Shown here piece after piece: positions 241-58,037 of a stretch of 64,000 nt of DNA (the first letter of the stretch is position 1; each line of letters starts with the position of its first letter). A model generated the notes under the pieces. That model worked only from the letters and a program-made list of their open reading frames with translations. It was not told the DNA's origin and searched no databases. The translations under genes and the position numbers were made by a program. Origin of the DNA: Candidatus Omnitrophota bacterium (GTDB lineage: Bacteria > Omnitrophota > Gorgyraeia > Gygaellales > Profunditerraquicolaceae); NCBI GenBank assembly GCA_023227985.1, contig JALOCB010000006.1, positions 2,631-66,630 on the forward strand. The letters run 5' to 3'.

Positions 241-293
241 GGAGCATTGATTTGCCCGCTGACTTTGCGGACAAGCCTGCCGGGGGCACAACT

Positions 294-3615: not shown

Positions 3616-3670
3616 CTTATTTTGCCGTCCAGACCCATGGATTATTCAGGCAAAACAGTACGGGATAAAT

Positions 3671-6220: not shown

Positions 6221-6396
6221 TATTCAAGAGGCTTATCATGGGAATAAACAGGAAGCGACGAGGGAATAGAACCACTCACTTTTTAAATTATTTTAAGGTG
6301 TCATTTCAGGTGAATCTTGAAGTAATGGCAGGTTATATCCTATGTAGATAATACCTAATTAGCGCATAGCTGTCAAGCAAAATAATTTCTCCCAAT

Positions 6397-6576: not shown

Positions 6577-6591
6577 GAGGAACCGTCCCCT
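6577..6591. repeat. Right arm of the 15-bp inverted repeat (gaggaaccgtcccct); overlaps the stop codon of the giant gene
   Basis: Perfect reverse complement of 6397..6411. The TAG stop of the 6590..14779 ORF lies inside the arm. Confidence 0.7.
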
Positions 6592-18699: not shown

Positions 18700-18704
18700 G
18701 TTTA

Positions 18705-19583: not shown

Positions 19584-19671
19584 CCCTGTTTATGTTACGG
19601 CTGGTTTCCCGTTCACGCGGGATATTGATTAAGGACTTTATTTTAACCGTAATACGCGTTTTTGTCAAAAA

Positions 19672-20838
19672 TTATTCCTTCAGCCTTAAGCCGGCCACCA
19701 CCTCGAAATGCCCGGTATGCGGGAACATATCCACCGGGATAACCCGCTCCAGCGAATAAGAGCCGCACAAAAGTTTAAGATCTTCCCGCAAAGACATCGG
19801 ATTGCAGGATATATATATGATCCGTTTCAGCCGGATATCCAGAAGGCTCTTCTTGAACTTTTTGCTTAAACCCACGCGCGGAGGGTCAATAACCGCAACC
19901 TGGGCATCTTCAATATAATCGCTTTCCTTAAGTCCGGCGAGGAACGTGTCGGCGTCCAGGCAGGCGAATTCGACATTATCAATTTTATTCAACCTGAGAT
20001 TTTTCTCGGCGTTGGCGATATTGAACGCCGAATTATCGACCCCGATTACCCTGGAAGAATTTCCGGCGAGCTGTAAGGTTATCCCTGCGCTTCCGCAAAA
20101 AATATCCAGGGCCGTGCCCGGCGCGTCTTTTACTTCATCCCGGACCACAGCGTATAACTTTTGGCAGCAATAAGGATTAGTCTGAAAAAAGGTCTTTGGC
20201 CCGATCAGATAATCGATCCCGTTGATGTTTTCCCGGATGTCATCATCTCCGGACAGATGCATCAATTCATCGGTGAGGGCTTTATCCGATAATAATTTAT
20301 TGAAGCAAAGATAGACCGACCGGACATCCGCCGCGGACATTAAGCGTTCGGCCAGAGCAAAGAATTTATTTTTTTCTTTGTCAAAATCCTCCCTGGTCAG
20401 GGCAACGGTTATTACCGCCATTATTGAGCCGTAAGCTTTCGAATGCCGCAAGGAAATATACCTTAACTCACCCGAAGATGTGCGCAGGTCATAAGGAATA
20501 ACTCGGAAGTCTTTTATCCACAGCTTACAGGCATCGAATATCCGGTCAAGCCCCTCTATAAATACACGGCATTCTTTCAGGTCGATGATCTGGGAGAATT
20601 TGGCTTTCTCTCTCTGCCCTATTATCGCTCCGGAGCTGTCCCGGGAGAATACGAATTCCATCTTATTGCGGAAATACCAGATCGGCTGCGAAGGGATTAT
20701 CTCTTTTATTTCGCCGGGGTTAAAACAGGCGAGGAGATTACGGCAATATTTTTCCTTGAATTGGAGCTGTTTCTCATAATCCTGATCCTGCGAATCGCAG
20801 CCTCCGCAGGAATTAAAATGCCGGCAGATATCTCGCAT
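19672..20838 (-). CDS. 23S rRNA (uracil-5-)-methyltransferase, RlmC/RumA family (no TRAM domain)
   Basis: The N-terminal 4Fe-4S cysteines are CRHFNSCGGC. The SAM-MTase core has DIFCGSAGITL, with the catalytic region (ISCNP) near the C-terminus. Confidence 0.75.
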   Translation of the reverse strand: MRDICRHFNSCGGCDSQDQDYEKQLQFKEKYCRNLLACFNPGEIKEIIPSQPIWYFRNKMEFVFSRDSSGAIIGQREKAKFSQIIDLKECRVFIEGLDRIFDACKLWIKDFRVIPYDLRTSSGELRYISLRHSKAYGSIMAVITVALTREDFDKEKNKFFALAERLMSAADVRSVYLCFNKLLSDKALTDELMHLSGDDDIRENINGIDYLIGPKTFFQTNPYCCQKLYAVVRDEVKDAPGTALDIFCGSAGITLQLAGNSSRVIGVDNSAFNIANAEKNLRLNKIDNVEFACLDADTFLAGLKESDYIEDAQVAVIDPPRVGLSKKFKKSLLDIRLKRIIYISCNPMSLREDLKLLCGSYSLERVIPVDMFPHTGHFEVVAGLRLKE

Positions 20839-21007
20839 AAAACTGACCTTACCATTTTTTAAAGATAACGGGAACCTCCAGGGGGATCACATCCTGGATG
20901 GTTTTAACTGCGTGGCGGATAACTGGCAGGAACCGATACGGTTAGCCGGGGCATAGGAGCAGTATTCAGCCAGCGCTATCATACATCTGGCCATTATAGC
21001 AGTATAC

Positions 21008-21844
21008 TTAAAGTTTTGCCGCTTCCACCAGGTTGCGCATAAGCATGGTAACGGTCAAAGGCCCTACCCCTCCCGGCACAGGAGTGATCCAGGAAGCGCG
21101 TTTCTGGGCCTCATCGAACTCCACGTCTCCGACGATCTTATCCCCGACCCGGTTTATGCCGACATCTATGACCACCGCGCCCTCTTTTATCCATTCGCCC
21201 TTGATCAATCCGGCCTTGCCCACCGCGACAATAAGGACCTCGGCGCTCTTGACATGCTCCTCTAATTTACCGGCCTTGGCCGTGCCGATATGGCAGACCG
21301 TTACCGTGGCCAGCTTTTCCAGCAGCAGCAGGCTTAAAGGCTTGCCGACTATCTCGCTGTGCCCGACAATAACAACTTCCTTCCCGGCGAGATCCAGGCC
21401 GGTGGCGCTCAATAATTCCATAACCGCGTTGGCGGTGCAAGGCACTATCCTGGCTTTGCCGAATACGATCTTGCCCATGTTCGCCGGATGCATCCCTTCC
21501 ACGTCTTTATCCGCAGAGATGAAGCCGCTGATCTTCTTATAATCCATATGCAAAGGCAGAGGCATCTGCACGATTATGCCGTTCACCGCCGGATCATTAT
21601 TAAGATTTCCTATATACTCAATGAGTTTTCCTTCGGTAGCCTGGCTATCCAGTTTGTGCAGCTGGTAATCGACGCCTAAAAGCTCGGCGTTCTTCTTCTG
21701 CGACTTTATATATGATTCCGCGGCCGGATTCTCCCCTACCTGCACGCTGGCCAGCTGAGCCTTTTTTCCCGAGCCCAGGATCTTCTGTTTGATACTCTCT
21801 TTTATTTTTTCCGCGATCGGCTTACCCTCTAATAATTTTGCCAA
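21008..21844 (-). CDS. folD: Bifunctional methylene-THF dehydrogenase / methenyl-THF cyclohydrolase
   Basis: 278 aa. Motifs GIIVQMPLP, the HIGTAK/VIVGHSEIVGKP NAD(P) site, and PVPGGVGPLT. Confidence 0.9.
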   Translation of the reverse strand: MAKLLEGKPIAEKIKESIKQKILGSGKKAQLASVQVGENPAAESYIKSQKKNAELLGVDYQLHKLDSQATEGKLIEYIGNLNNDPAVNGIIVQMPLPLHMDYKKISGFISADKDVEGMHPANMGKIVFGKARIVPCTANAVMELLSATGLDLAGKEVVIVGHSEIVGKPLSLLLLEKLATVTVCHIGTAKAGKLEEHVKSAEVLIVAVGKAGLIKGEWIKEGAVVIDVGINRVGDKIVGDVEFDEAQKRASWITPVPGGVGPLTVTMLMRNLVEAAKL

Positions 21845-22379
21845 CTTTAACCTCCATCTGCTGTCTGATTTTTCTCACAACCTTACCCTTTTCGTCCAGC
21901 TCTTTCCTGATCCCCTTTGCCAGTTCCGGGTCGTTAAGATATTTAAGGTTTATATCCACATTGACATACGCGCTGAAAAAAGCCGACTCCAGCAATACCG
22001 CTGCCACCGCCACGTCGCTGATCAGGTTCTGATTGCTCTTTCCCAATATAAGCGGGCAGATATCTATCGCCTCAAAACAAAGCCGGCAGACCATAAGCGG
22101 CACATCCATGGATTTCCGCAGATCCTTGCTGCTATAGGCGGTAACATCCAGATCGACAAGATGCAGGAATTCCAAACGCAGTTTTTCGGATTTATCCAGG
22201 CACTTCTTAAGCTGGCTTTCATATTCGGCGTATTTCGGCTTGCCCACGGTGAAATTAAGCACCATGCTGATCAAAGCTGATCCTAAAGCCGCGCTCATCG
22301 CTGCGGCGGATCCGCCTCCGGGAGCGGGTAATTTCCCAGCCAGATCATCCAGGTATTTTTTAAGGTGATTTCCGTACAT
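21822..22379 (-). CDS. fchA: Cyclodeaminase/cyclohydrolase family protein (FtcD C-terminal-like; methenyl-THF cyclohydrolase FchA-like)
   Basis: 185 aa, all-helical. PAPGGGSAAAMSAALGSAL is the typical motif of the formimidoyl-THF cyclodeaminase family. Lies immediately upstream of folD and overlaps it. Confidence 0.7.
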   Translation of the reverse strand: MYGNHLKKYLDDLAGKLPAPGGGSAAAMSAALGSALISMVLNFTVGKPKYAEYESQLKKCLDKSEKLRLEFLHLVDLDVTAYSSKDLRKSMDVPLMVCRLCFEAIDICPLILGKSNQNLISDVAVAAVLLESAFFSAYVNVDINLKYLNDPELAKGIRKELDEKGKVVRKIRQQMEVKVGKIIRG

Positions 22380-25683: not shown

Positions 25684-26724
25684 ATGTTAAACAAAATAAA
25701 AAATACTGTGGAAGAAGCGCTGAAAAAGCATGTAAGCGATATGGACGGCATTTACCCTTTCAAACGGCTCTCTCCTCTGCTTGGCGAAAGCATAAAAGAA
25801 TACATCGCCAGACCCGGAAAAAGGGTCAGGCCGATGCTTTTTGTCCTGGGATACCTTGCCTTTGCCAAAAAACCCGCTTCCGGGCTGTACCAAAGCGCCC
25901 TCTCGATCGAACTGCTTCACGACTTTATGCTCATCCACGATGATATAATCGATAAATCCGATTCCCGCAGAGGCAGGCCTTCAATGCATAAAATGCTGAA
26001 TAACCGGTTAAGGCTGGATAAAAGCGTTAAATTCAACGGCCAGGACCTGGCGATCGTCGTGGGGGATATCATTTACGCTATGGCCATAAAGAGCTTTTTA
26101 TCCATCAAAGAAAACCCGGTAAGGAAAGAAAAGGCCCTGAATAAACTGTTGGACGCCGTTCTTTATACCGGCGCAGGCCAGTTCATCGAGATAATTTACG
26201 GGATAAAACGGATAGATAAAATAAACAAAAACGACATTTACCGCATATATGACCTGAAGACCGCGTATTATACCTTTGCCTATCCCCTGTCCATAGGCGC
26301 CACCCTGGCCGGAGCTCCGGAAAAACAGATCAAAAAAATATTTGATTACGGTCTTATCCTGGGGCGGGCCTTCCAGATAAAAGACGATATACTGGGGATC
26401 TTCGGCAATGAAGAAGAAACCGGCAAATCATCGCTGACCGACCTGCAGGAAGCCAAAAGGACGCTGCTTATATGGTACGCTTACAATAATTCCCCCAAAA
26501 AAGACAGGTCGCAGATAAGCGCAGTATTTTCCAAGAAAAAAGTGGGCCGGACGGATTTAAGCAGGATGCGACAGATAATACACGGGTCCGGGGCGCTGGC
26601 TTACGCGAAGGGGCAAATATCGACCGCAGCGAAAAAGGCGGATAAGATAATCTCTTCCCTGGGCACCGGGGCGAATATCAAAAAACTGCTATCGGAATTC
26701 TACCGCAACATCCTAAGCCTTTAA
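25684..26724 (+). CDS. Polyprenyl diphosphate synthase (trans-IPPS, FPP/GGPP synthase family)
   Basis: This is the only convincing plus-strand gene. The first Asp-rich motif is LIHDDIIDKSD and the second is FQIKDDILG. Confidence 0.85.
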   Translation: MLNKIKNTVEEALKKHVSDMDGIYPFKRLSPLLGESIKEYIARPGKRVRPMLFVLGYLAFAKKPASGLYQSALSIELLHDFMLIHDDIIDKSDSRRGRPSMHKMLNNRLRLDKSVKFNGQDLAIVVGDIIYAMAIKSFLSIKENPVRKEKALNKLLDAVLYTGAGQFIEIIYGIKRIDKINKNDIYRIYDLKTAYYTFAYPLSIGATLAGAPEKQIKKIFDYGLILGRAFQIKDDILGIFGNEEETGKSSLTDLQEAKRTLLIWYAYNNSPKKDRSQISAVFSKKKVGRTDLSRMRQIIHGSGALAYAKGQISTAAKKADKIISSLGTGANIKKLLSEFYRNILSL

Positions 26725-26730: not shown

Positions 26731-27108
26731 TCAAACGAGGGTATTCTGTTCTATGCAATAAATAAGCTTATCCACGGGAACCGGCTTTGCCAGAAACGGC
26801 CTTCCGGAGATGATCCCATTTTGATCCCTTACTTCTCTTTCCGTAACGATAGCGGTCAAGAATACGATGGGTATGTTCTTCAGATCCTCATCCGATCTGA
26901 GCTTCTGGGATATTTCGCCGCCATCAACATTCGGCATAACGATATCCAAAAGGATCAGGTCAGGCTTGAATTCCTTTACCGTGCGGATGGCATTGACGCT
27001 TTGGCTTTCAGCCCTGACCTCGTATTTGCCGGTTTCCTCCAGGTTCAATTTCACCATCCTGCAAAAACTCTCTTCATCGTCGATTATGAGGATCTTTTTT
27101 CTCGGCAT
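26731..27108 (-). CDS. Single-domain response regulator (receiver only)
   Basis: 125 aa. ILIIDDEE, the phospho-acceptor DLILLDIVMP, and the K in LAKP. Confidence 0.85.
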   Translation of the reverse strand: MPRKKILIIDDEESFCRMVKLNLEETGKYEVRAESQSVNAIRTVKEFKPDLILLDIVMPNVDGGEISQKLRSDEDLKNIPIVFLTAIVTEREVRDQNGIISGRPFLAKPVPVDKLIYCIEQNTLV

Positions 27109-27142
27109 TTTCAGCCTCCCTTTCTCTTAAAGATGCCAAACG

Positions 27143-28408
27143 TTAACCCTGCATACGGAACATAAGCATCGCCTTTATCCCGCCCTCTTTTTTATTCGTT
27201 ATGTCGATCCTTCCCCGGTGCATCTCCATTATATTTTTGACGATAGACAACCCCAGGCCGGTCCCGCCTTTGCCGCGCTTGGTGGTGAAGAACGGGTCAA
27301 AAACTTTGTCAATGATCTCTTGAGGTATCCCTATCCCGGTATCTTCGACCTCGACCAAGACAATTTTTTCTCCCGGCTTAAAGATATCCTCTTTTCTGCG
27401 CCCGGCGCCTCCGGTCATTGCCGGGGCCTTTTCGATGCGCATGCTTATGGTCAGCGTCCCGCCTGAAGGCATAGCGTCCGCCGAGTTCATAAAAAGGTTC
27501 AAAAAAACCTGTTCGATCCTGTTCTTATCGATGTTTATCGGCGGGATGCCCTGCGCAATATCCTCGTTCAACTGGATATGGTTCTTTACAAACTGGTGCT
27601 TTACCAGCAAAAGGGAATTTCCCAGCACTGTTCTCAGGTCATGCGGCGAAACATCCAGTTTGGATAAACTGGCGAAATCCAACAAGCCGGTGATAATATC
27701 ATTGGCCCGCATTACCGCGTCGGTCATGGACTTTAAAGCAAAAGAAATATTCTCGTCATCCAGAGGGACCTTCTTAGTCAGGTATTCAACCCCCTGGCTT
27801 ATTATTGCCAGCGGGTTTTTCACTTCGTGGGCCACGCCGCTGGCCAGGCCGCCAACCACCTGCATCTTAGCCGCCTGGATAAAACGCGACTGGGTTTCCT
27901 GGAGCTCAGAGTAGGCCTGCAACAATTTGGCGTTAGCGCTGGTCAGGTCCGAGGTGCGCAAAGCAACCTGCACTTCCATCTCGGACAAGGCCTTTTTCAA
28001 AGCCTCTTGTATGTGTTTGCGCTCAATAGCGTAACGGATGGCGCGGATAAAATGAAAGACATCCTCCCTGCCCTTGACCAGATAATCCTGCGCGCCGGCC
28101 TGCATCGCCTTGATCGCCGTGGATTCGTCATCAAGCCCGGTAAGCACCAGGACGGGGATCCCGGAAGAACGCGCCTGGACTTTGACCAGCGTGTCAATAC
28201 CTTCGCTGTCAGGAAGAAACAGGTCCAGCAAGACAACATCGATATCGTTTTTTACGAGGCGGTCAAGGGCGGGGGCCAGGCGTTCAAACCATTCTGTTTT
28301 ACAGTCGATCTCGCTTACTTTCGCGAGCATATCCTGTATCAGCCTGGCGACCAAACGGTCATCCTCGATCAAAAGGACCTTAATGCTTATATTCTCTTTA
28401 TCGGCCAT
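27143..28408 (-). CDS. Hybrid REC-histidine kinase (N-terminal receiver, then HisKA and HATPase_c)
   Basis: The receiver domain has VLLIEDD...VLLDLFLPD. The H-box is AHEVKNPL. The G1/G2 boxes are DTGIGIP and GGTGLGLSIV. Confidence 0.88.
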   Translation of the reverse strand: MADKENISIKVLLIEDDRLVARLIQDMLAKVSEIDCKTEWFERLAPALDRLVKNDIDVVLLDLFLPDSEGIDTLVKVQARSSGIPVLVLTGLDDESTAIKAMQAGAQDYLVKGREDVFHFIRAIRYAIERKHIQEALKKALSEMEVQVALRTSDLTSANAKLLQAYSELQETQSRFIQAAKMQVVGGLASGVAHEVKNPLAIISQGVEYLTKKVPLDDENISFALKSMTDAVMRANDIITGLLDFASLSKLDVSPHDLRTVLGNSLLLVKHQFVKNHIQLNEDIAQGIPPINIDKNRIEQVFLNLFMNSADAMPSGGTLTISMRIEKAPAMTGGAGRRKEDIFKPGEKIVLVEVEDTGIGIPQEIIDKVFDPFFTTKRGKGGTGLGLSIVKNIMEMHRGRIDITNKKEGGIKAMLMFRMQG

Positions 28409-28435
28409 AACGACGGGTGCTGCTGAAGGGAGTTA

Positions 28436-29188
28436 TCATTCCAGAAGCGCGGAAACCAGGCATATCCTGACCAGCGCGCAGGTCTCAAGATAATCCAGGT
28501 CAAAAGGCTTAACGATATACTCGCATACCCCGAATTTTTTTGCCTCTTCGAACACGGACTCATCCATTATGCCGGTGATCATGATAACGCCCACTTTGTC
28601 ATCCATCTCCCGGATCCGTTTAAGGGTAAGGAGTCCGTCTATCCCGGGCAATTTCACGTCCAGCAATACCAGGATCGGCTTTTCCGCCTTGAATTTCTCC
28701 AGGCCTTCCTCCCCGCTGGCGGCGGTCACCACGCTAAACCCTTTTTTAGACAAAAAATCGCGGATCAACGAAGATATATTCGGGTCATCATCCACAACCA
28801 GTATCTTTTCCTGGCCGTAGCGTTTATTAGGCTGCAATATCTCGTTAATGGCCTTTACAATGACATCTATGCCCAATGCCTTGCGCAGAAAACCGCTCGC
28901 CCCGGCCAGGCGGGCCCGGCGCTCCAACTCGTCGTCGGCAAAACCGGTCACCATCAACACCTTGGTCTTATGGTCGAAATAACGCAGTTTCTCCAGCAGC
29001 TCGACACCGTCCATATCCGGCATCTTGAAATCCAAAAGCATCAATTCGGGGTTGTGCGTCCGCGCCAATTCCAGGGCCTCTTTGCCGCTATGGGTTGTTA
29101 TCACCTTATAGCCGACTTTGGTCAACGCGTCATAAAGAAGTTCGCGGATCTGAGAATCGTTATCCACCACCAGGATTTTGGATTCCAT
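28436..29188 (-). CDS. Tandem-receiver response regulator (REC-REC)
   Basis: Two complete CheY-like domains: ILVVDND...MLLDFKMPD and ILVVDDD...VLLDVKLPG. Confidence 0.85.
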   Translation of the reverse strand: MESKILVVDNDSQIRELLYDALTKVGYKVITTHSGKEALELARTHNPELMLLDFKMPDMDGVELLEKLRYFDHKTKVLMVTGFADDELERRARLAGASGFLRKALGIDVIVKAINEILQPNKRYGQEKILVVDDDPNISSLIRDFLSKKGFSVVTAASGEEGLEKFKAEKPILVLLDVKLPGIDGLLTLKRIREMDDKVGVIMITGIMDESVFEEAKKFGVCEYIVKPFDLDYLETCALVRICLVSALLE

Positions 29189-29203
29189 ATGCCTTTACGC
29201 TCC

Positions 29204-30040
29204 TTATTTATTGACCGCCGTCACAAAAAGGGAAGTAATGATCTCGTCCAGTTTCTGCAGGTCGCAAGGCTTGAGCAGATAATCGCAGGCGCCTTCCTTA
29301 GCCGCCTCTTCCATAACATGCTCGTCCTGGACCGAAGTAAGCATGATCACTTTTATCGATCCATTGATCTTTTTTATCTGGTTCAACACCATTAATCCGT
29401 CCATCCCGGGCATGCGCATATCCAGGAGCACTACCTGAGGAGCCTCTGTCCTTACCGACATAAGCGCATCCATACCGGAAGAGGAGACATCAACCTTATA
29501 GCCTTTTTTGCCCAAAAAATCCTGCAGGACATTGCGTATCTCCAGATTATCATCCACCACAAGTATGCGTCTGCCGGCATTGGACGCATCCGCCGCCAAG
29601 TGAATGCCGCCTTCTTCAGAGCGCAATACCCCCAATATCGTCTTCACCATAAAATGGGTGGAAAAATCCTTCTTCACCACAGCCGAGACCCTGAGGGCCA
29701 GGACTTTAGCCTGGGCTTCATCAGACTGGCTATCAACGGCAAAAATTATTATATGCGCCTGTTTATCGAATCCCCTGATCTTCCGGGCAGTATCCCACCC
29801 GCTTAATCCGGGCATAGCCTCATTCAGGATTATCAGATCGAACCTCTCCTCGGAAAGGCGGGCCAGGGCTTCTTCCCCCGTAGGGACGCAGGTAACCTCA
29901 TAATTCAAAGAAAACAATATCTCGTATAAAAGGTTTCGCGCATCCAGATCATTATCAGCTATCAGTATTTTTTCCTTCCACATAGCTTTATTTATCCTCG
30001 TTCTCCCCCAATTTTTCCTTAACCTTAGCCAATATCTCAA
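29204..30040 (-). CDS. Tandem-receiver response regulator (REC-REC)
   Basis: Two receiver domains: ILIADND...IILNEAMPG and ILVVDDN...VLLDMRMPG. The probable true start is MWKEK at about 29983, which removes the overlap with the next gene. Confidence 0.8.
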   Translation of the reverse strand: MRYWLRLRKNWGRTRINKAMWKEKILIADNDLDARNLLYEILFSLNYEVTCVPTGEEALARLSEERFDLIILNEAMPGLSGWDTARKIRGFDKQAHIIIFAVDSQSDEAQAKVLALRVSAVVKKDFSTHFMVKTILGVLRSEEGGIHLAADASNAGRRILVVDDNLEIRNVLQDFLGKKGYKVDVSSSGMDALMSVRTEAPQVVLLDMRMPGMDGLMVLNQIKKINGSIKVIMLTSVQDEHVMEEAAKEGACDYLLKPCDLQKLDEIITSLFVTAVNK

Positions 30041-30371
30041 AGAGGTCTATGGGTTTATACATTACGTCTTTTTCATTATAACCCAATCCCAACAACTCAT
30101 CAATATCTTTCTGGAGACCTATTGACCCGCTTAAGATTATGACCGGCAGCTTTATCCCCGCGTCATTCAATCCCCTCAAAACATCCATGCCGGTCATTTT
30201 AGGCATGCGCATATCTATGATCAACAGGTCCATCTTGTCGCCGGACTTTAATATATTCAGCGCCTTGTCGCCTTCCAGGTTTTTAAAAACTTCAAACCCT
30301 TTCTTGCGCAAAAAGACGTCGATTATATTCACTATCTCCTGCTCGTCATCTACTACCATTATTTTAGGCAT
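29988..30371 (-). CDS. Single-domain response regulator
   Basis: 127 aa. IMVVDDEQE...LLIIDMRMPKMTG. Confidence 0.85.
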   Translation of the reverse strand: MPKIMVVDDEQEIVNIIDVFLRKKGFEVFKNLEGDKALNILKSGDKMDLLIIDMRMPKMTGMDVLRGLNDAGIKLPVIILSGSIGLQKDIDELLGLGYNEKDVMYKPIDLFEILAKVKEKLGENEDK

Positions 30372-31107
30372 TGCTACCTCCTTCTGGCATTGCCGGCAGT
30401 GTTATGCTGGCTGCCGTCCCTTTCCCCGGAGAGCTTTTCAGATCCAACTCTCCTCCGTGCGCCTTGACTATGCTATAACTTACCGAAAGGCCCAAACCAA
30501 CGCGTTTTTCTTTAGTGGTAAAAAAAGGCTCGAACAACCTGGCCATAACTTCGGCGGACATTCCCGGCCCTGTATCTTCAAAGGTTATCTTCACATTTTC
30601 CCCGGACCGGCAGGTAGACACCTTTATCTGCCCCCCCTTAAACATAGCATCCCGGCTGTTATTCAACAAATTGATAAACACATCCTGCATATGTTTTTCG
30701 TCTATATTAACCTCCGGTAAGCCTACGCCGTAATTTTTCATTATTTTGACATTATCCATAGAAAACTGGGGTTCAATAAGGCTGATCAGCCCTTCCAGGC
30801 TTTTATTTATATCCGCGCGAACTGTCCGGTCCTTCGAAGGCCGGACAAAACCAAGAATTCTTTGTATTATATCTTTTGCCCTTTGGCTTTCCTGGAAGAT
30901 CGCCTGAAGGTTCTTCTTTAATTCCTCGTTATCGATCTTTTCCATCAATGACAACTGAGCCCTGCCCGAAATAACCATTAAAGGGTTGTTCACATCATGG
31001 GCCATAACCTCCACAAATTTACCAAACTGGGCGAACCTCTGCGAATTCTCGCGCTTTTTACGCCGGGCTATATCCCGGTTAATAGAAATAAAATCAAATA
31101 ATCCCAT
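30364..31107 (-). CDS. Cytoplasmic histidine kinase core (HisKA and HATPase_c only, no sensor or TM)
   Basis: The H-box is MAHDVNNPL. The N, G1 and G2 boxes are NLLNNSRDAM, DTGPGM and GLGLS. Confidence 0.85.
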   Translation of the reverse strand: MGLFDFISINRDIARRKKRENSQRFAQFGKFVEVMAHDVNNPLMVISGRAQLSLMEKIDNEELKKNLQAIFQESQRAKDIIQRILGFVRPSKDRTVRADINKSLEGLISLIEPQFSMDNVKIMKNYGVGLPEVNIDEKHMQDVFINLLNNSRDAMFKGGQIKVSTCRSGENVKITFEDTGPGMSAEVMARLFEPFFTTKEKRVGLGLSVSYSIVKAHGGELDLKSSPGKGTAASITLPAMPEGGSNA

Positions 31108-31108
31108 A

Positions 31109-31471
31109 TCACCCCAGAAATTTAACGATTTTTGCCGCCATCTCAGCGGAATCGAACGGTTTCAACATATAATCGTCCGCCTTGCAAAGTTTAACCTTCT
31201 CCACAACGCAATCGGAACTGGCAGTAACCAGGATAACAGGTATCCCCCTAAGACCCTCGTCAGCCTTCATCTGAATGCATACCTCTGTTCCTTCCATAAC
31301 AGGAAGGCGCAGGTCCAACAATACCAAGTCGGGTTTCTTCTCTCTGATCAGCTCTAAGCCTTCTTTGCCGTTTACCGCCACATAAACCTCATAGCCCATC
31401 TTTTTCAGCCTGAAAACCTCAACCTTCAACACATCAGGCTCATCATCCACAACCACGATTTTTTTCGCCAT
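31109..31471 (-). CDS. Single-domain response regulator
   Basis: 120 aa. IVVVDDEPD...VLLDLRLPVMEG. Confidence 0.85.
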   Translation of the reverse strand: MAKKIVVVDDEPDVLKVEVFRLKKMGYEVYVAVNGKEGLELIREKKPDLVLLDLRLPVMEGTEVCIQMKADEGLRGIPVILVTASSDCVVEKVKLCKADDYMLKPFDSAEMAAKIVKFLG

Positions 31472-31498: not shown

Positions 31499-34288
31499 TC
31501 ACAAAAGATAATTCAGCCACTTTTCCAACAGCTTTATATCAAAAGGCTTGCCGATCATCGGCAAGGCTTCCTTTTTAATATACTCTTTTATACGGTCGAT
31601 TTTTACCTCGTATCCGGAGATTATCAAAAGCGGGATATCCTTGGTCCTTACACTGCCTTTAAGCCTGCCGATCACCTCGTAACCGCTCATCCTGGGCATC
31701 TTAATATCGAGTATTATCAGGTCCGGCGGCTGGGCTTCTATCAGGGCCAAAGCCTCTTCGCCTCCGGCAGCCTCGGTGATATTGCTATAACCGAACTTCT
31801 CCAGTATCTTGCGCAATGTGCTCAAAACCTCGGGTTCATCATCCACCAGCATTATCCTGCTTCTTGATCTTTCCTCCTGCGTATTAACCACGGATCTATA
31901 CGCCTTATCCAGCAACTCCTCCACGGTTTTAGCCTCATCCGGAAAAACAACGTAGCTGCTGGAAAATTGCGCCTTTAACTCTTCATCTATCTTAAAAATA
32001 GTTTCTTTAACTGCCGCGCGCAGCCTTAACTTAAGCCCCTGGGCTTCCAGCCTGGGAATAAGGCTGGACACAAACAGTTCATTCTCTACCCTGCGGATCA
32101 CCAGATCAGAAACGCCTATCTGGCCTTTTAAAGATTCCTGGATCTCCCGGCAAATAGCCTCTGTTTTATCCGAACCTGCCCGGATTTTGATCTGCCCGTA
32201 ATTATCCCACCGCAAAACGAATAAACCGAAAACAAAATACGCTTTTTCTATCGCGTCTTTGCCCTGCTTTATGCTCTCCTCCAATATCTTTTCTATGCCG
32301 TACCTGGGGAGCGTAAAAATAAATTTGGTTCCGGCGCCGACCGCGCTTTCAACATAAATGGCCCCGCCATGCTTTTCAATGATCTCCTTGGATATAGCCA
32401 AACCCAGCCCTGTGCCGCCTTTCCTTTCTTTAACATCTCCCAACTGCTCGAAGCTCTGAAAAAGCCGGGGAATATCTTCCTGCTTAACCCCGGGCCCGGT
32501 ATCTTCCACTGTAACGCATACGGCGTTCCCTTTCTTTGTGGTAGCCAAAATGATGCTTCCTTTTTCAGTGAATTTAATGGCGTTATTCACCAGGTTGGTT
32601 ATGACCTGGATGATCTTGTCGCGGTCAAACCTGAATACAGGCAGGTTCTCGTCAAGTTTGATCACCAGGTCCAGCCCCTTGGCTTTTATCAGGGCGGTCA
32701 TTGTCCTCTCGATCTCCAGGGCCACTTCATTGATATCGTTGTCCTGGAAATTGAACTGGGCCTTGCCTGCATCCAGCTTCTGGAAATCAAGGACATCGTT
32801 TATCAGGCGGGCCAAACGGTCCACATTCCTCTTAGCCGTATCCAGAAAATCTTTTTGCTCAAGGTTAAGCTCTCCGGCCGATCCGTCCAGTACAATATTT
32901 ATGCCCTCCTTGATCGCGGTCAGCGGGGTCCTTAACTCGTGGGAAACGATAGAGGTGAATTTTGATTTTGTTTCCATTGCCTCTTTAAGCCTTGCCTCCG
33001 CTTTCTTGCGCCCGGTAATATCCCGGATGGATTCAATAGCGCCGATAAAATGCCCCATATCGTCAAAAAGAGGAGCGGCCACTACCCAGAGATATGCGCC
33101 TTTTCCCTGGTAAAAGCCGGGGATGAACGTTTCCGCAAACAGATTATTCCCTTTTTTCTCTATAAAATCGTATTTCTTGCTTAATTTCGAATTATGCTGG
33201 AAGACAAAATCGATCATTACCGGCCGCGCCTGCCCGTAAAAAGGCACGGCATAGGCGTAATCGCCTTTGCCGATCATATCCTTCTTGGATACCCCGGTCA
33301 TATCCTCTAAAGCCCGGTTCCAGGCAATCACCTTTTTTTCCTGGTCTATAACAAAGGTGGCGTCAGGCAGGAATTCGATTATATCCAGGAGCTTGCGGTT
33401 GCTCGACTGAAGCCCTTCTTCGGCCCTTTTACGGCTGGTTATCTCCTGGAGCAAAACGCGGTTAAGCCTGCCCAGTTCCGCGGTCTTCTGTTGTTCTATA
33501 GCCACTAATTTCTGCTCTTTTTCTATGGCCAATCTCAGATCATCGCTCATCTTGTTGAACAGCCCGATCAACCTGCCGATCTCATCCTCCTTCTTGGGAA
33601 TTATCTTATGGCTGAAATCACCGTGGGCTACCAGGTTCATCCCTTTTCCCAGGTCTTTGATCGGCCGGATTATTGCCTGCAGCAGAAAGAAAAAAGTCAG
33701 GATTATGATGACCATTAGCCCGAACAGGGAAAGATAGATATTGCGTTTCCAGGTAGCCTTTTCCTCTGCGAGCTTATCCTTCCAATCCAGGACTATTCTC
33801 AAGACCCCGAGAACTTTTTTATCCCGGCCATGGCAGCCAAAACAGTTTTTTTCATTAAAAATCGGTATGCTCTTGGCAAAGACGCTCTCTCCTGTTTTCT
33901 TGCGTATCTCCACTCCCTGGATCTCTTCGCCCCTTAAAAGCCTGTCCAGATACTTAACCTGGGGCTTTTCGCCGATCCGGCTCTTATCCGTGCTTCTTTT
34001 AATGACCCCCAGATAATCCGTCAAATGGATGTCATTGACCTCTTTTAAATTACGGTAATTGTCGAATTGCAGTTGGATTATATCCTGGTCGCCGCCCAGC
34101 ATAGGATGGCGCATCGCGGTCAGAATAACGTTCGAGAAGGTGCTTCCTTCGTTGACGCTGTGCGTCAGCATTATCCTGTTCTGGTTACTTATGTTCATCA
34201 CGGTCATTATGCCCAGTATAGAGAATAATATGAAAAAGAGCATTATTATGCTGCGGGCGCTCAAGGAGTTATTTATATTTTTTATCAC
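31499..34288 (-). CDS. Hybrid sensor histidine kinase: TM, periplasmic CxxCH domain, TM, HAMP, PAS, HisKA, HATPase_c, unknown module, C-terminal REC
   Basis: 929 aa. Two TM helices flank a periplasmic region of about 140 aa that contains NCFGCHG, a c-type heme-binding motif. HAMP is followed by a PAS-like region (FVIDQEKKVIAWNRALEDMTG). The H-box is SHELRTPL. G-boxes are DTGPGV and GGTGLGLAIS. The C-terminal receiver is IMLVDDEPE...IILDIKMPRMSG. Confidence 0.85.
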   Translation of the reverse strand: MIKNINNSLSARSIIMLFFILFSILGIMTVMNISNQNRIMLTHSVNEGSTFSNVILTAMRHPMLGGDQDIIQLQFDNYRNLKEVNDIHLTDYLGVIKRSTDKSRIGEKPQVKYLDRLLRGEEIQGVEIRKKTGESVFAKSIPIFNEKNCFGCHGRDKKVLGVLRIVLDWKDKLAEEKATWKRNIYLSLFGLMVIIILTFFFLLQAIIRPIKDLGKGMNLVAHGDFSHKIIPKKEDEIGRLIGLFNKMSDDLRLAIEKEQKLVAIEQQKTAELGRLNRVLLQEITSRKRAEEGLQSSNRKLLDIIEFLPDATFVIDQEKKVIAWNRALEDMTGVSKKDMIGKGDYAYAVPFYGQARPVMIDFVFQHNSKLSKKYDFIEKKGNNLFAETFIPGFYQGKGAYLWVVAAPLFDDMGHFIGAIESIRDITGRKKAEARLKEAMETKSKFTSIVSHELRTPLTAIKEGINIVLDGSAGELNLEQKDFLDTAKRNVDRLARLINDVLDFQKLDAGKAQFNFQDNDINEVALEIERTMTALIKAKGLDLVIKLDENLPVFRFDRDKIIQVITNLVNNAIKFTEKGSIILATTKKGNAVCVTVEDTGPGVKQEDIPRLFQSFEQLGDVKERKGGTGLGLAISKEIIEKHGGAIYVESAVGAGTKFIFTLPRYGIEKILEESIKQGKDAIEKAYFVFGLFVLRWDNYGQIKIRAGSDKTEAICREIQESLKGQIGVSDLVIRRVENELFVSSLIPRLEAQGLKLRLRAAVKETIFKIDEELKAQFSSSYVVFPDEAKTVEELLDKAYRSVVNTQEERSRSRIMLVDDEPEVLSTLRKILEKFGYSNITEAAGGEEALALIEAQPPDLIILDIKMPRMSGYEVIGRLKGSVRTKDIPLLIISGYEVKIDRIKEYIKKEALPMIGKPFDIKLLEKWLNYLL

Positions 34289-36390
34289 TGCTTCCTCCTT
34301 AAGAGCATTTTTACCCGCGCCAGCAGCTTATCGCTGTCAAAAGGTTTGGTCAGGTAATCGTCCGCCCCGGCGTCAAGGCCCTGCAGCTCGCTTTCCTTAT
34401 CCTCCCTGGCGGTCAAAAGGATGACCGGGATCACCGCGGTCTCCAGTTTCGACCGTAAAGCCTTAACCTCTTCAAACCCGTTCATTTTGGGCATAGTAAC
34501 GTCGCTAATGACCAGATCCGGCTTTTCCTTATTACAGAACGCCACTGCCTCCTGACCATCCCTGGCCTTGACCACCCGATAGCCCGCGTCGGTGAGCCTT
34601 TTTTCCAGGATCTTCAGTATATCTTCCTCATCGTCTACAATAAGTATCTTTATATCCTTGCCGGCCTGCGCCGACCTAAGGACAGCTTCTTCCTCCGAGG
34701 CGGCGCCGACTATGTTGAAGATCTCTTCCAGAGTAGTGATCCCCGCGGATACTTTCTCCAGGCCTGCTCTGGCCAAAGTCTTCAGGCCGCTCTTCTTTGC
34801 CTCCGACAGAATCTCGTCTTCCGCGAACCTCTGGGCGATCATCCCCCGTATCTTTTCGCTGATCCTGAATATCTCAAAAATCGCGGTCCTGCCCAGAAAA
34901 CCGGTGAATCCGCAATAGCTGCAGCCCGAACCATGATAGAACTCCTTTATACCAAGCTGGTCTATATGGCTTTTAAATAGGCTTAACAAGTGCCCATCCG
35001 GTTGATATTTCTCTTTGCAATGCGGGCAGATCATCTTGACCAGCCTCTGGGCCACGACAAGGATCAACGCAGAAGATATCAGATACGGCTCCAGACCTAT
35101 ATCCACCAAACGGGTTATTGAGGCAACCGCGTTATTCGTATGCAGCGTGGATAATACCAGGTGCCCGGTCAAAGAAGCCTGGAAAGCCATTTCTGCTGTC
35201 TCCTTGTCCCTTATCTCGCCTATCAGGATAACATTCGGGTCCTGCCGCAGAATGCTCTTTAAGGCGTTGGCAAAAGTAAGATCCTTGACCGGATTTACCT
35301 GCATCTGGTTCAAGCCATCGATCAGATATTCTATGGGGTCTTCTATAGTAATTATATTATTTTTCTCTGTTTTAACGACATTAAGAGTGGCATAAAGAGT
35401 GGAAGTCTTGCCCGACCCTGTGGGCCCGGTGACCAGGATCAACCCTTGAGCGGCAGTGATCGCCTGTTTATAGATATCCAGATCCGGGCCTTGAAAACCC
35501 ATACTTTCCAGCCCGGTTTTTGCCGCCTGAATATCCAACAACCTCATCTCGATCTTTTCCCCGTAAAAAGTAGGTATAGTCGAGACCCGCAGATCGACCT
35601 TCCTGCCGTTGACCGATATCTTAATCCTTCCATCCTGGGGCTTGCGGTTCTCCGCGGTATCCAACTGCGCCAGGACCTTCAAACGCGCGGCCAGCGAAGA
35701 ATGCAGGCTGACCGGAAGGTCCATAATATTGCGCAGGTCGCCGTCTATCCTGTACCTGACCTTGACCGTCTTCTCCTGAGACTCGATATGGATATCGCTG
35801 GCCCTTTGTTTTACCGCGTCGCTCAAAATAAGGTTGCAAATCTTTACTGCCGGGACATCTTCGGATCTTTGCGCCCGCTCATCCAAAAAGAATTCAGACG
35901 CGTCTTCGGTAACGATCTCGACCTTATCCGCTCCCATGACATTCTTCAGGATGTCATAAATATTATCCTCCGCCTGATAATATTTCTTAATGTGATTGTT
36001 TATCTCGCTCTTGGCGGCCAGTAGCGGCTTTACGCTCATTCCCGTGTTCAACCTTATATCATCCAGGGCCATAATATCCTGGGGATCGCTCATCGCCAAT
36101 ACCAGCGCGTCACCCTCCTTGCGCAAGGGCAATATCCCGTAACGCATAGCCAGTTCATACGGGACCAGCCTGACAGCAGAAGGGTCTATTGTTTCCTTGC
36201 TCAACTGCGTAACAGGCATATTGAATATCTTGGATGAAGCGCTGACCAGCTGCTCCTCCGCGATAAAACCCATCTCCACTAATAATTCCTGAAGCGGCTT
36301 CTTAGCGCCGATGCGCTTGATCCTGGCGTCGTTAAGCTGTTCCGCCGTTATGAGCCCTTCCCTGATAAGCTCGTCGATCAAAACAGTCAT
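34285..36390 (-). CDS. GspE/PilB-family secretion ATPase fused to a C-terminal receiver (REC) domain
   Basis: 701 aa. T2SE N-terminal domain. Walker A is GPTGSGKT. Asp and His boxes are ILIGEIRD and LVLSTLHTN. A tetracysteine motif is CPHC...GSGCSYC. The C-terminal receiver (aa ~583-701) is ILIVDDEED...LVISDVTMPKMNG...YLTKP. Confidence 0.85.
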   Translation of the reverse strand: MTVLIDELIREGLITAEQLNDARIKRIGAKKPLQELLVEMGFIAEEQLVSASSKIFNMPVTQLSKETIDPSAVRLVPYELAMRYGILPLRKEGDALVLAMSDPQDIMALDDIRLNTGMSVKPLLAAKSEINNHIKKYYQAEDNIYDILKNVMGADKVEIVTEDASEFFLDERAQRSEDVPAVKICNLILSDAVKQRASDIHIESQEKTVKVRYRIDGDLRNIMDLPVSLHSSLAARLKVLAQLDTAENRKPQDGRIKISVNGRKVDLRVSTIPTFYGEKIEMRLLDIQAAKTGLESMGFQGPDLDIYKQAITAAQGLILVTGPTGSGKTSTLYATLNVVKTEKNNIITIEDPIEYLIDGLNQMQVNPVKDLTFANALKSILRQDPNVILIGEIRDKETAEMAFQASLTGHLVLSTLHTNNAVASITRLVDIGLEPYLISSALILVVAQRLVKMICPHCKEKYQPDGHLLSLFKSHIDQLGIKEFYHGSGCSYCGFTGFLGRTAIFEIFRISEKIRGMIAQRFAEDEILSEAKKSGLKTLARAGLEKVSAGITTLEEIFNIVGAASEEEAVLRSAQAGKDIKILIVDDEEDILKILEKRLTDAGYRVVKARDGQEAVAFCNKEKPDLVISDVTMPKMNGFEEVKALRSKLETAVIPVILLTAREDKESELQGLDAGADDYLTKPFDSDKLLARVKMLLRRKQ

Positions 36391-36394: not shown

Positions 36395-36769
36395 TTAGGT
36401 CCTTGGTTTATCCAACAGCGCCTTAATGGCAGCCATCAGGGCTTGGGGGTCATAAGGTTTTTCGATATAGGCATCAGCCCCGTCGCTAAGGACCTTCTTC
36501 TTGTATTCCGGGTCCGTCACTCCGGTAAGCACAATGACCGGGATGTATCTGACCTGATTGGATAATCTAATGTTCTTTAAGACCGCCTGTCCACCGCCCG
36601 CGGGCAGCATCAGATCCAGGATGATCAAATCAGGCGGGGTTTTATGGATCATTGCTATACCCTGATAAGCGTCCTGAGCCGCCATTACCTCAAAGCCCTC
36701 CTGGGCCAACCTTTTATGCAATACCTTCACAACATCCAGGTCGTCCTCAATGATCATTATATTGCGCAT
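36395..36769 (-). CDS. Single-domain response regulator
   Basis: 124 aa. IMIIEDD...IILDLMLPAGGG. Confidence 0.85.
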   Translation of the reverse strand: MRNIMIIEDDLDVVKVLHKRLAQEGFEVMAAQDAYQGIAMIHKTPPDLIILDLMLPAGGGQAVLKNIRLSNQVRYIPVIVLTGVTDPEYKKKVLSDGADAYIEKPYDPQALMAAIKALLDKPRT

Positions 36770-36878: not shown

Positions 36879-39362
36879 CTATTTTTCGCAGGGTATATTG
36901 ACCGGCACATTCCAGATATCCCTGGCGTATTCCTGTATCGTCCGGTCGCTGGAGAACCTGCCGCACTTGGCGACGTTGAAGATCGACTTCTCCAGCCACA
37001 GCCGTTTATTGCGGTAAAGCTCGCTGACCTTGTCCTGCGCCTGGCAATACGGATCGAAATCGGCGCAGAGGAAATAACGGTCGTAATAAAGCAGGCTTTC
37101 CACTATCGGGACGAACAACCCGTAATTGACGTGCGAAAAAAAGTTGCTCTGGATAAGACGGATGATCTCTTTAAGCACGGGCGAACGGTCGATATATTCC
37201 TGCGGATTGTACCCCCTGGCCTGCAGTTTGCCGACCTCTTCCACGTTAAGTCCGAAGGTGAATATATTATCCTCGCCCACTGCCTCGGCTATCTCGATAT
37301 TCGCCCCGTCCAGCGTGCCGATGGTCAACGCCCCATTCATCATAAATTTCATACAGCCGGTCCCCGACGCCTCTGTCCCGGCGGTGGATATCTGTTCGGA
37401 AAGATCGGATGCCGGGAATATTTTCTCAGCCAGGGATACCCGGTAATTCTCCAGAAAGACCACTTTTATCCGGTCATTGACGGTCTTGTCCTGATTGATC
37501 ACCTCGGCCACGCTGCTGATGAATTTAATGATCATCTTCGCCATATAATAACCGGGGGCTGCCTTGCCTCCCAGGATGAATGTCCTGGGCACGATATCCG
37601 CGTTAGGATCGTTCTTTATCTTAAGGTACTGCGAGATAATAAACAAGGCGAAAAGAAGCTGGCGTTTATATTCATGGATCCTTTTCACCTGGACATCGAA
37701 CATAGATTCGGTATTTACCGCTATTCCGGTGGTCTTGTGGATATAATCCGCCAGGAAATGCTTGTTCTCCAGCTTGACCTCGTCCCACTTGTTCCGAAAG
37801 GCCTGTTCCATCTTGAAAGGAAGGAGCTTCTCAAGTTGGCACAGGTCCACTGTCCATTTCTCGCCGATAACCTCCGAGATCAGCGAAGAAAGACTGGGAT
37901 TGGCCTTCTGCAGCCATCTCCTCTGGGTGACGCCGTTGGTCTTGTTATTGAATTTTTCCGGGGATATCTCGTAGAAATCCTTAAAAAGATGCTCTTTCAA
38001 AAGTGTGGAATGCAGGCTGGAGACGCCGTTGACCGAATGCGACCCGATCAACGACAAATAGGCCATGCGGATCTTCTTGGGATCGCCTTCCTCGATTATC
38101 GACATCCTGCGCAGCCGGTCGGTATCCCCGGGGAATTTTATCGCCACATCCCGAAGAAAACGCATATTTATCTCATAGATCAACTGCATGTGCCGGGGGA
38201 GCAGTTCCTCGAACATCGGCACGCGCCAACTCTCCAGCGCCTCAGGCATAACCGTATGATTGGTATAAGCGAAAGTCTTTACGGTGATATCCCAGGCGGT
38301 TTCCCATTCCATGTTCTCCTCATCGAGCAGTATGCGCATCAGCTCGACGATGGCCAGCGAAGGATGGGTGTCGTTCAACTGGATGCACACTTTATCCGGC
38401 AAATGAACGAGGTCTTTATTTTCCGTCTTGAACCTGCGGATTATATCCGCGATCGACGCGGCGGTGAAAAAATATTCCTGTTTTAAACGCAGCTTCCTGC
38501 CCTGGCTTACCGCGTCATTGGGGTAAAGGACCTTGGAGATGTTCTCCGAGAGCATTTTATTGTAAACCGCGTGCTCATAATCGCCGTCGTTGAAATATTT
38601 AAGGTCGAATTCCTCGGTGCTGCGCGCCGACCACAGCCTTAAGGTGTTGACGATATCGGTCTTATAACCCGGGACAGGGATATCATAAGGCATAGCCAGG
38701 ACGTCCTCGGTATCCGCCCATTTTGCCCTCAACCTTCCCTTGGAGTCGGTGAACATATAGGTATGGCCGTAAAAGCGGATCTTAACCATGTATTCGGGGC
38801 GGGCAAACTCCCAGGGATTACCCCTGTTCAACCACTCGTCGGGAAATTCCACCTGATGGCCGTTGATTATCCTCTGATTGAATATCCCGTATTCATATCT
38901 TATGCCGTAACCGTGCGCCGGTATGCCCAGCGTCGCCATAGAATCCAGGAAACAGGCGGCAAGCCTTCCCAGACCGCCGTTGCCCAGTCCGGCGTCGCTC
39001 TCGCAGTCGCGGATATCCTCGATATCAAATCCCAGGGCCTCCATGCATTCCTTAACCTGATCGATGATCCCGAGGTTCAGCATGTTATTGCCTAAAAGCC
39101 TGCCGATCAGGAATTCCATTGATAAATAATAAACCCGTTTCACGTTCTCGGTATGATAGCGCTGCTGGGTATTGATCCAGCGCTCGATCAGCCTGTCGCG
39201 TATGGCTATGGCCAGGGCGGTGAAATTGTCGTTCAGGGTGGCGTTGTATTTATCCTTGCCCAGGGAATACTCGCGCTTGGAAAAAAAAGAACGCTCGATC
39301 CCCGCCTTAGTCATGTCTTTATGGACGTTCACCCATTTCGGTTCGATCTTTTTCGCGGCCAT
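36879..39362 (-). CDS. glgP: Glycogen/alpha-glucan phosphorylase (GT35)
   Basis: 827 aa. The PLP-binding region EASGTGCMKFMMNGALTIGTLDGANIEI is present, with full-length GT35 resemblance. Confidence 0.93.
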   Translation of the reverse strand: MAAKKIEPKWVNVHKDMTKAGIERSFFSKREYSLGKDKYNATLNDNFTALAIAIRDRLIERWINTQQRYHTENVKRVYYLSMEFLIGRLLGNNMLNLGIIDQVKECMEALGFDIEDIRDCESDAGLGNGGLGRLAACFLDSMATLGIPAHGYGIRYEYGIFNQRIINGHQVEFPDEWLNRGNPWEFARPEYMVKIRFYGHTYMFTDSKGRLRAKWADTEDVLAMPYDIPVPGYKTDIVNTLRLWSARSTEEFDLKYFNDGDYEHAVYNKMLSENISKVLYPNDAVSQGRKLRLKQEYFFTAASIADIIRRFKTENKDLVHLPDKVCIQLNDTHPSLAIVELMRILLDEENMEWETAWDITVKTFAYTNHTVMPEALESWRVPMFEELLPRHMQLIYEINMRFLRDVAIKFPGDTDRLRRMSIIEEGDPKKIRMAYLSLIGSHSVNGVSSLHSTLLKEHLFKDFYEISPEKFNNKTNGVTQRRWLQKANPSLSSLISEVIGEKWTVDLCQLEKLLPFKMEQAFRNKWDEVKLENKHFLADYIHKTTGIAVNTESMFDVQVKRIHEYKRQLLFALFIISQYLKIKNDPNADIVPRTFILGGKAAPGYYMAKMIIKFISSVAEVINQDKTVNDRIKVVFLENYRVSLAEKIFPASDLSEQISTAGTEASGTGCMKFMMNGALTIGTLDGANIEIAEAVGEDNIFTFGLNVEEVGKLQARGYNPQEYIDRSPVLKEIIRLIQSNFFSHVNYGLFVPIVESLLYYDRYFLCADFDPYCQAQDKVSELYRNKRLWLEKSIFNVAKCGRFSSDRTIQEYARDIWNVPVNIPCEK

Positions 39363-57659: not shown

Positions 57660-58037
57660 CTACTTTTTCGGTTGCCGCCCTGCCTTAACGGCGGTTGCGT
57701 CCTTCAATTGTTCTTCCAGCGAATCTTTGAGCCCGGTAAGCTTTTCTATCCCGGCCCTGAGATCCTGGTTGATCTTACGCTCCTGTTCCAGCGACTTCTG
57801 GACGGAATCAAAACCGGTCTTTGCCGATTTAAGGGCATCTTCGGCTTTTTTAAGTTTATTCTCCAAAGCGCTGTTTTCCTTTTGAAGGCTGTATGCCTTT
57901 TCCTGGGCATCGAACCGGATGAACATTTCCTTATCCCGCGCTATCTTAGTCCGCCGGGATTTTGAGTAAGAATGGACCATGCCGGCCAGGAATAATACGT
58001 TTACTGCGATCAAAACGAAAACGATCCGGTTTTTCAT
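57660..58037 (-). CDS. Membrane-anchored coiled-coil protein
   Basis: N-terminal TM helix followed by an E/K/Q-rich coiled coil. No enzyme motifs. Confidence 0.5.
   Translation of the reverse strand: MKNRIVFVLIAVNVLFLAGMVHSYSKSRRTKIARDKEMFIRFDAQEKAYSLQKENSALENKLKKAEDALKSAKTGFDSVQKSLEQERKINQDLRAGIEKLTGLKDSLEEQLKDATAVKAGRQPKK

Follow-up and report, generated by a model that had tools for sequence, protein, structure and literature searches.

The window analysed here (64,000 nucleotides of contig JALOCB010000006.1 from a Candidatus Omnitrophota bacterium) encodes PilB-REC, a 701-aa protein in which a PilB/GspE-class ATPase is fused to a C-terminal receiver (REC) domain. On balance, we consider it probable that PilB-REC powers the assembly of a type IV filament, either a pilus or a pseudopilus, and that this motor is phospho-gated by its cis-acting receiver. 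Judged from the sequences compared, the gene is real and is conserved across the Omnitrophota together with a partner small response regulator.

Architecture and conservation of the fusion

Pfam divides PilB-REC into three parts, with MshEN matched at aa 56-142 (79.9 bits), the T2SSE ATPase core at 437 bits and the C-terminal Response_reg domain at 110 bits, against a gathering score of 30.2. The intact N-terminal domain, the complete ATPase core and the canonical receiver claimed in a preliminary description of this DNA are all borne out, and so are the coordinates that it gave for the gene. More specifically, the core contains Walker A GPTGSGKT (nt 35404-35427), the Asp box IITIEDPIEY (E350, D351, P352 and E354), the Walker B motif ILIGEIRD, the His box LSTLHTN and a CxxC...CxxC zinc site formed by C455/C458/C490/C493. 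The preliminary description had also found ILIGEIRD, but had labelled it the Asp box. A tetracysteine zinc site is typical of PilB/GspE, while PilT lacks it. The receiver carries the acidic pair D586/D587, the acceptor D630, T660, the switch residue Y679 and K682.

Across an alignment of 44 family members, the key residues of the ATPase motifs and the four cysteines show no variation. D587, D630, T660, Y679, K682 and P683 are likewise invariant, and all quoted motif residues are either invariant or at least 90% conserved. The N-terminal stretch GAKKPxQELLVEMGF is conserved and specific to the family. The linker between ATPase and receiver (about aa 559-581) varies in sequence and length, with only in-frame insertions and deletions. 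It occupies nt 34648-34716, which corrects an earlier placement of the junction at about 34640-34660.

The architecture recurs widely. A search of 5.8 billion protein clusters at the 90% identity level, from which 120 matches were listed, returned at least 120 clusters with the PilB-REC architecture at about 700 aa and 53-100% identity, and PF05157, PF00437 and PF00072 were present in all those listed. Their named sources are all Candidatus Omnitrophota or Omnitrophica metagenome-assembled genomes (MAGs), including Gygaella, Tantalella, Aceula and Ancaeobacter, and a contig of 127,864 bp in an NCBI Candidatus Omnitrophica MAG encodes an identical protein (P0001). Furthermore, a metagenome scan with the family-specific N-terminal profile yielded 53 distinct PilB-REC family loci (individual loci are given by L numbers). 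The C-terminal receiver is kept in 36 of 37 complete homologous open reading frames (ORFs) from independent metagenome contigs; in the single exception, L103, the ORF is split within the ATPase and not at the junction. The orthologues in L084 and L085, which come from independent assemblies, are 701 aa long and align with the window protein in frame and without gaps, linker included. Their receiver codons differ from those of the window by synonymous-only rather than amino-acid-changing differences in ratios of 22 to 7 and 27 to 10, which is also the pattern of the ATPase; the linker likewise has more synonymous than amino-acid-changing differences. Linker and receiver are thus under purifying selection.

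The AlphaFold2 model of PilB-REC (mean pLDDT 79) consists of three well-folded parts joined by low-confidence linkers at aa 141-178 and 564-578, the latter with pLDDT below 50. In Foldseek comparisons, the ATPase core matches PilF, PilB and GspE/EpsE at 45-47% identity (E ~1e-48), with target TM-scores of about 0.9 for Thermus thermophilus PilF and Geobacter PilB and lower values for the Vibrio chains. None of the solved chains among these structural matches carries a fused receiver. Geobacter metallireducens PilB (5tsh) and T. thermophilus PilF (5oiu), at 45-46% core identity, share the common motifs and an N-terminal MshEN/N1 domain with PilB-REC, whereas no solved or characterised PilB is known to carry a C-terminal receiver, and the window gene lies away from pilC and pilT.

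Such fusions are less rare than the preliminary description implied. Among 1.84 billion representatives of clusters formed at 50% identity, 20,118 matched at E<=1e-30, and the best 150 were inspected. A receiver follows the ATPase in 82 of these 150, a count that is not a frequency because the ranking favours receiver carriers, and eight have an N-terminal receiver. The whole Omnitrophota family collapses to one 50%-identity representative; another representative with a receiver fusion derives from an Elusimicrobia MAG. In many of the 150, a spacer of about 90-100 aa separates the ATPase from the receiver, and some have further C-terminal extensions. A scan of GTDB species genomes, covering 600 pattern hits, gave three C-terminal and one N-terminal receiver fusions among the best 80 of 552 PilB relatives, a rough frequency from which most of the main family is left out. 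One of the three C-terminal fusions is a divergent Omnitrophota protein; the other two come from a 'Deltaproteobacteria' and a Frankiaceae MAG.

The scan also showed other PilB architectures outside the phylum. In a 'Deltaproteobacteria' MAG (L040, 2914-5346) the order is REC, MshEN, T2SSE and double zinc ribbon, and in a Frankiaceae MAG (L043, 3836-6133) it is MshEN, T2SSE, double zinc ribbon and REC. The spacer of L043 is thus a double zinc ribbon, and the spacers of similar length in the other representatives may be the same. A neighbour-joining tree was built from the N-domain and ATPase alone; it lacks bootstrap support and is indicative. In it, the proteins from the deltaproteobacterial and Frankiaceae MAGs stand apart from the Omnitrophota clade, so that the fusion arose more than once, independently in other phyla. 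A literature search found no description of a PilB/GspE-REC fusion, of this Omnitrophota module or of pilus regulation in the Omnitrophota.

Operon context and candidate regulatory inputs

Ten two-component genes follow one another on the minus strand, and PilB-REC is the second among them (Table 1). Four nucleotides separate the stop codon of the upstream receiver gene from the ATG of PilB-REC, and the GTG start of the hybrid kinase overlaps the TGA stop of PilB-REC (GTGA), with an AGGAGG Shine-Dalgarno sequence ahead of it. Because of this spacing and overlap, the small receiver, PilB-REC and the hybrid kinase are almost certainly co-translated.

Table 1. Features of PilB-REC and its two-component gene cluster, with nucleotide positions in the window.
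Feature	Position	Strand	Basis
PilB-REC, PilB/GspE-class assembly ATPase with C-terminal receiver, 701 aa	34285..36390	-	ORF list, Pfam
N-terminal region, aa 1-142: MshEN_N-like helical part and MshEN/N1 domain	35965..36390	-	Pfam
T2SSE ATPase core, aa 176-558: Walker A, Asp box, Walker B, His box, Cys4 zinc site	34717..35865	-	Pfam
Flexible linker between ATPase and receiver, aa 559-581	34648..34716	-	Variable sequence, low pLDDT
Receiver domain, aa 582-694; phospho-acceptor D630 at nt 34501-34503	34309..34647	-	Pfam
Single-domain response regulator, 124 aa, 4 nt upstream of PilB-REC	36395..36769	-	Pfam REC
Sensor hybrid histidine kinase: transmembrane segment, periplasmic domain (CFGCH), HAMP, PAS, HisKA, HATPase, weak GGDEF-like, REC	31499..34288	-	Pfam
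Seven further genes: REC, HisKA-HATPase kinase (the soluble kinase of the cluster), REC, REC-REC, REC-REC, REC-kinase, REC	26731..31471	-	Pfam

The ten-gene cluster recurs in L084 and L085. Across the family, a single receiver gene lies directly upstream of PilB-REC in 35 of 45 assessable loci. These upstream receivers, about 121-126 aa long, are a conserved family of their own that shares the signature DLIILDLMLPAGGG...EKPYDP and keeps the acceptor Asp intact. Downstream, a kinase, a histidine phosphotransfer (Hpt) protein or a receiver is found in 17 of 29 assessable loci, and the sensor domains vary by lineage between dCache, multiple PAS domains and the CFGCH-containing domain of the window lineage. 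As the upstream receiver is kept while the sensors differ, the conserved core is the small receiver plus PilB-REC, fed by lineage-specific sensors. The preliminary description had proposed His-Asp control of the ATPase from the fusion itself, and the coupling to an upstream receiver and a downstream hybrid kinase, a pairing that is conserved, strengthens the proposal.

The CFGCH motif lies at aa 149-153 of the hybrid kinase (window 33760-33800, minus strand), in a predicted periplasmic domain that weakly matches a methyl-accepting chemotaxis protein class-40H sensor domain. CXXCH is the motif typical of covalently bound c-type haem. The kinases of L084 and L085 retain it, but it is confined to the window lineage, and kinases beside other family members carry different sensors; the domain may be a redox or gas sensor and possibly binds haem. 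Within the cluster, two adjacent REC-REC proteins without output domains (28436-30040) have the same architecture as Xanthomonas DrdR.

The N-terminal domain was further compared with the motif by which the MshEN family binds c-di-GMP. This motif consists of two 24-residue elements, RLGxxhhxxGhhxxxxLxxxLxxQ, with the relaxed form [RKPN]hGxxhhxx[GAS]hh....h...h..[QNKRYWST] (Wang et al. 2016, PMC5013675). The relaxed motif is matched by none of the 44 family members, compared with 7 of 16 canonical PilBs from the loci retrieved, which served as positive controls. Neither MshEN half has the Gly of motif position 3; the first half also lacks the Arg of position 1, and the second has Pro there, which the relaxed motif permits. 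An earlier remark that the domain lacks the R and G positions of MshEN is borne out. As Wang et al. caution that imperfect MshEN motifs can still bind c-di-GMP (PMC5013675), we go no further than to call a c-di-GMP input to PilB-REC unlikely. Vibrio cholerae MshE (PMC5013675) and PilB-REC share the N-domain fold family, and both have a regulatory input built into the motor; in PilB-REC, however, the c-di-GMP motif is absent from both halves and a phospho-acceptor domain stands at the opposite end. In the same study, REC is listed among the domains that co-occur with MshEN, and Bd2402 is described as a REC-MshEN_N regulator without an ATPase (Wang et al. 2016, PMC5013675).

The solved receivers closest to that of PilB-REC are PleD D1 and the OmpR/PhoB-type group (PhoP, YycF and PhoB). 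On the alpha4-beta5-alpha5 face, D677, D678, Y679 and R692 are invariant and R699 is at least 90% conserved. Receivers of the PleD and OmpR/PhoB type act by phosphorylation-induced dimerisation, and this likeness suggests that phospho-REC domains could pair between neighbouring subunits of the hexamer.

Under the favoured reading, the covalent two-component receiver would replace the usual second-messenger input of the motor. The co-transcribed membrane sensor kinase, acting directly or through the other kinases and receivers of the cluster, would phosphorylate D630; the phosphorylated receiver, as a member of the PleD/OmpR-PhoB-like group, would then alter the assembly or the conformational cycling of the ATPase hexamer, and this change would gate filament extension. 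The small receiver encoded 4 nt upstream could compete for phosphoryl groups or act on the motor itself, as an antagonist or a sink. We infer that D630 receives phosphate, how and in which direction this would change ATPase activity, and which filament machine is served in this organism.

Several known systems are instructive in this respect. In NtrC-type REC-AAA+ enhancer-binding proteins, receiver contacts that depend on phosphorylation control how a hexameric P-loop ATPase assembles or how active it is; this is a mechanistic analogy only, since NtrC belongs to another ATPase clade and differs in its N-terminal receiver and its transcriptional output. The response regulators PilG and PilH act on PilB in trans. 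In Xanthomonas, DrdR binds PilB and PilT and increases their ATPase activity (PMC13507683), and in Synechocystis the PatA-type regulators PixE and PixG bind PilB1 and PilC (bioRxiv 10.1101/2021.06.11.447907). Control of PilB by free response regulators is thus established, and the DrdR and PatA-type findings provide a precedent. In both cases, receiver proteins modulate the motor in trans, and the window cluster likewise has stand-alone REC and REC-REC proteins. In PilB-REC, by contrast, receiver and motor are joined covalently in one polypeptide, the Rosetta-stone version of that interaction, and there is no PATAN domain.

Filament motor or signalling component

The tie to a filament machine comes from related loci. 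PilC is encoded immediately after PilB-REC in seven loci (L092/L119, L098/L105, L107, L108 and L115) and in L165. In L108, L119 and L165, Pfam and independent gene calls give the order PilB-REC, T2SSF (PilC), three N_methyl pilins and a PilX_N protein, and one pilin of the PilC-linked operons matches T2SSG. Within this subclade, PilB-REC and PilC matches share, for example, a 685,689-bp contig. In the neighbour-joining tree, the Omnitrophota-type PilB-REC proteins form one clade apart from canonical PilBs, within which the PilC-linked members are a nested subclade that is sister to that of the window. The PilC and pilin operons of this nested sister subclade tie the family to a type IV filament machine. 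By this comparison, the PilB-REC family descends from a filament assembly ATPase and in part probably still is one, and in the window lineage the gene has parted from pilC and now sits within a phosphorelay.

Among the Omnitrophota PilB-REC loci, L004 diverges most; its protein is 962 aa long and has about 200 aa more at the N-terminus. A 2073-aa ORF (49-6270) and a pilin-like N_methyl gene (8700-9272) lie upstream of it, and a PAS kinase lies downstream.

Several results weigh against a phospho-gated filament motor. Pfam finds no PilC, pilin, PilM-Q, PilT or secretin in the whole 64-kb window, and most PilB-REC family loci have no PilC, pilin, PilM-Q or PilT gene within about 10 kb. The best 120 matches listed in a PilC search include none on the 1.87-Mb (Ga0209340_1000001, with the 87% orthologue), 127-kb and 122-kb contigs of the window lineage, which does not amount to evidence that PilC is absent. 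PilB-REC may also be an extra paralogue beside a canonical PilB: canonical PilBs without a receiver occur in Omnitrophota within full type IVa pilus (T4aP) clusters, and L039 encodes an MshEN-only protein, two PilBs, PilC, a pilin, PilM and PilN. Such clusters agree with the reported commonness of T4aP clusters in the phylum (Seymour et al. 2023, PMC10066038). Furthermore, the NCBIfam scores lie below both equivalog cut-offs, at 605.8 bits for PilB (TIGR02538, cut-off 675.65) and 574.9 bits for GspE (TIGR02533, cut-off 630.25), and PilB-REC is therefore filed as PilB/GspE-class and as an orthologue of neither. Finally, with a pTM of 0.53, the AlphaFold2 monomer leaves the placement of the receiver relative to the ATPase unfixed. 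Public annotations of the protein read 'ATPase, T2SS/T4P/T4SS family', 'TadA' or 'response regulator'.

For lineages in which the gene stands outside a pilC operon, the main rival is that PilB-REC no longer powers a filament and has become a signalling ATPase, a phosphorelay node that serves either as an ATP-driven or ATP-sensing modulator, its receiver passing phosphate to Hpt proteins and other receivers, or as a scaffold for the control of other outputs. The ten two-component genes around PilB-REC, together with the lack of filament genes in the 64 kb, would fit such a role, as would the Hpt gene that directly follows PilB-REC in several loci and the existence of canonical PilBs with complete T4aP clusters in Omnitrophota. 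However, all catalytic motifs, the Cys4 site and the platform-docking N1/MshEN domain are conserved as in working motors, and the nested sister subclade is operonic with PilC and pilins. We regard this rival as unlikely, although it is the most serious one.

A further possibility, which we rate slightly lower again, is that PilB-REC is a type II secretion-like (pseudopilus) ATPase under the same control, with protein secretion as its output. The GspE model scores near the PilB model, the linked operons have an E-F-G-like order with one T2SSG-matching pilin, and Vibrio GspE/EpsE is structurally as close as PilB. The V. cholerae GspE/EpsE structures (1p9r and 4ksr) show 46-47% core identity, and their systems share the E-F-G gene order with the PilC-linked subclade. 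They differ in that the receiver is an addition in PilB-REC and that no GspL, GspM or secretin lies near it. Likewise, no secretin, GspC, L or M was seen next to the linked operons, and the best family score is that of PilB.

It is far less probable that the receiver of PilB-REC is a pseudo-receiver, serving dimerisation or localisation only and never phosphorylated. Such domains are common, and the N-terminal receiver of DrdR is one (PMC13507683). Here, however, the acidic pair, D630, T660, Y679 and K682 are invariant or nearly so across the 44 sequences, and kinases are co-transcribed with PilB-REC. Least of all can the fusion be attributed to a sequencing, assembly or annotation error that merged an ATPase gene and a receiver gene, the outcome that the preliminary description had named as fatal to its claim: we reject this explanation as next to impossible because the architecture recurs as a single ORF in more than 100 independent assemblies, the linker changes length only in frame, the gapless orthologues are under purifying selection, and the sole split homologue is broken elsewhere.

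Surrounding genes and meaning for the Omnitrophota

Genes for alpha-glucan or glycogen metabolism lie directly upstream of the receiver/PilB-REC module in several loci, with glycogen phosphorylase in the window, L084 and L085, and GH13, GH57 and GH77 in L002 (3050-9548). Glycogen-type genes of the window are found at 36879-39362, 54950-56530 and 2133-3548, of which the GH57 branching enzyme and the glycogen synthase stand away from the module. A general functional link between these genes and the module was considered and rejected, as L001 and L003 differ; the adjacency may be a coincidence or a regulatory link.

The remaining genes of the window are housekeeping genes, including glycogen phosphorylase, QueA, RuvB, IF2, NusA, TGT, TrmD, the beta subunit of acetyl-CoA synthase/carbon monoxide dehydrogenase (ACS/CODH), isoprenoid genes and others. 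A giant ORF of 2729 aa (6590-14779, minus strand) combines HEAT repeats with phosphoglucomutase/phosphomannomutase domains I-II and resembles the long proteins of the Omnitrophota 'sugar-metabolism module' (bioRxiv 10.64898/2026.06.07.730766). Wood-Ljungdahl and C1 genes occupy 15588-22379 and encode ACS/CODH beta, a pyridine nucleotide-disulphide oxidoreductase, MTHFR, FolD and a protein with the FTCD_C domain (formiminotransferase-cyclodeaminase C-terminal), a set that fits the acetogenic metabolism reported for some Omnitrophota (PMC10066038). Two minus-strand ORFs, at 60632-62377 (581 aa) and 57660-58037 (125 aa), have no Pfam match at E<=1e-3. All confidently assigned genes are on the minus strand except the polyprenyl synthetase (25684-26724, plus strand), and the GC skew is negative in every 2-kb bin of window 1-64000; strand bias and skew are consistent with one long replichore arm with strong co-orientation.

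What is known of how the motors of type IV pili and type II secretion are turned on and off comes largely from c-di-GMP, from adaptors of the PilZ/FimX type and from free response regulators. Against this background, a receiver within the motor would be the simplest system in which to study the effect of phosphorylation on a PilB hexamer, with one polypeptide, one Asp and an adjacent kinase. As a Rosetta-stone fusion, PilB-REC is also independent support for direct contact between REC and PilB, as reported in Xanthomonas and Synechocystis. To a specialist, PilB-REC is not very surprising, yet it offers an unusually clean system for receiver control of a PilB-type hexamer.

The Omnitrophota are ultra-small bacteria and suspected predators or parasites. 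Their pili are thought to mediate host or prey attachment (Seymour et al. 2023, PMC10066038). PilB-REC points to a regulatory module that is conserved in this phylum and has so far not been discussed. Taken further, and as a tentative picture that we hold to be rather doubtful, an Omnitrophota-wide module of small receiver and PilB-REC, fed by lineage-specific kinases and here by a CXXCH, possibly haem-binding, sensor, would switch filament extension post-translationally without c-di-GMP. Where the gene has moved from pilC into a ten-gene phosphorelay, as in the window lineage, the ATPase may be a signalling integrator instead of, or besides, a motor.

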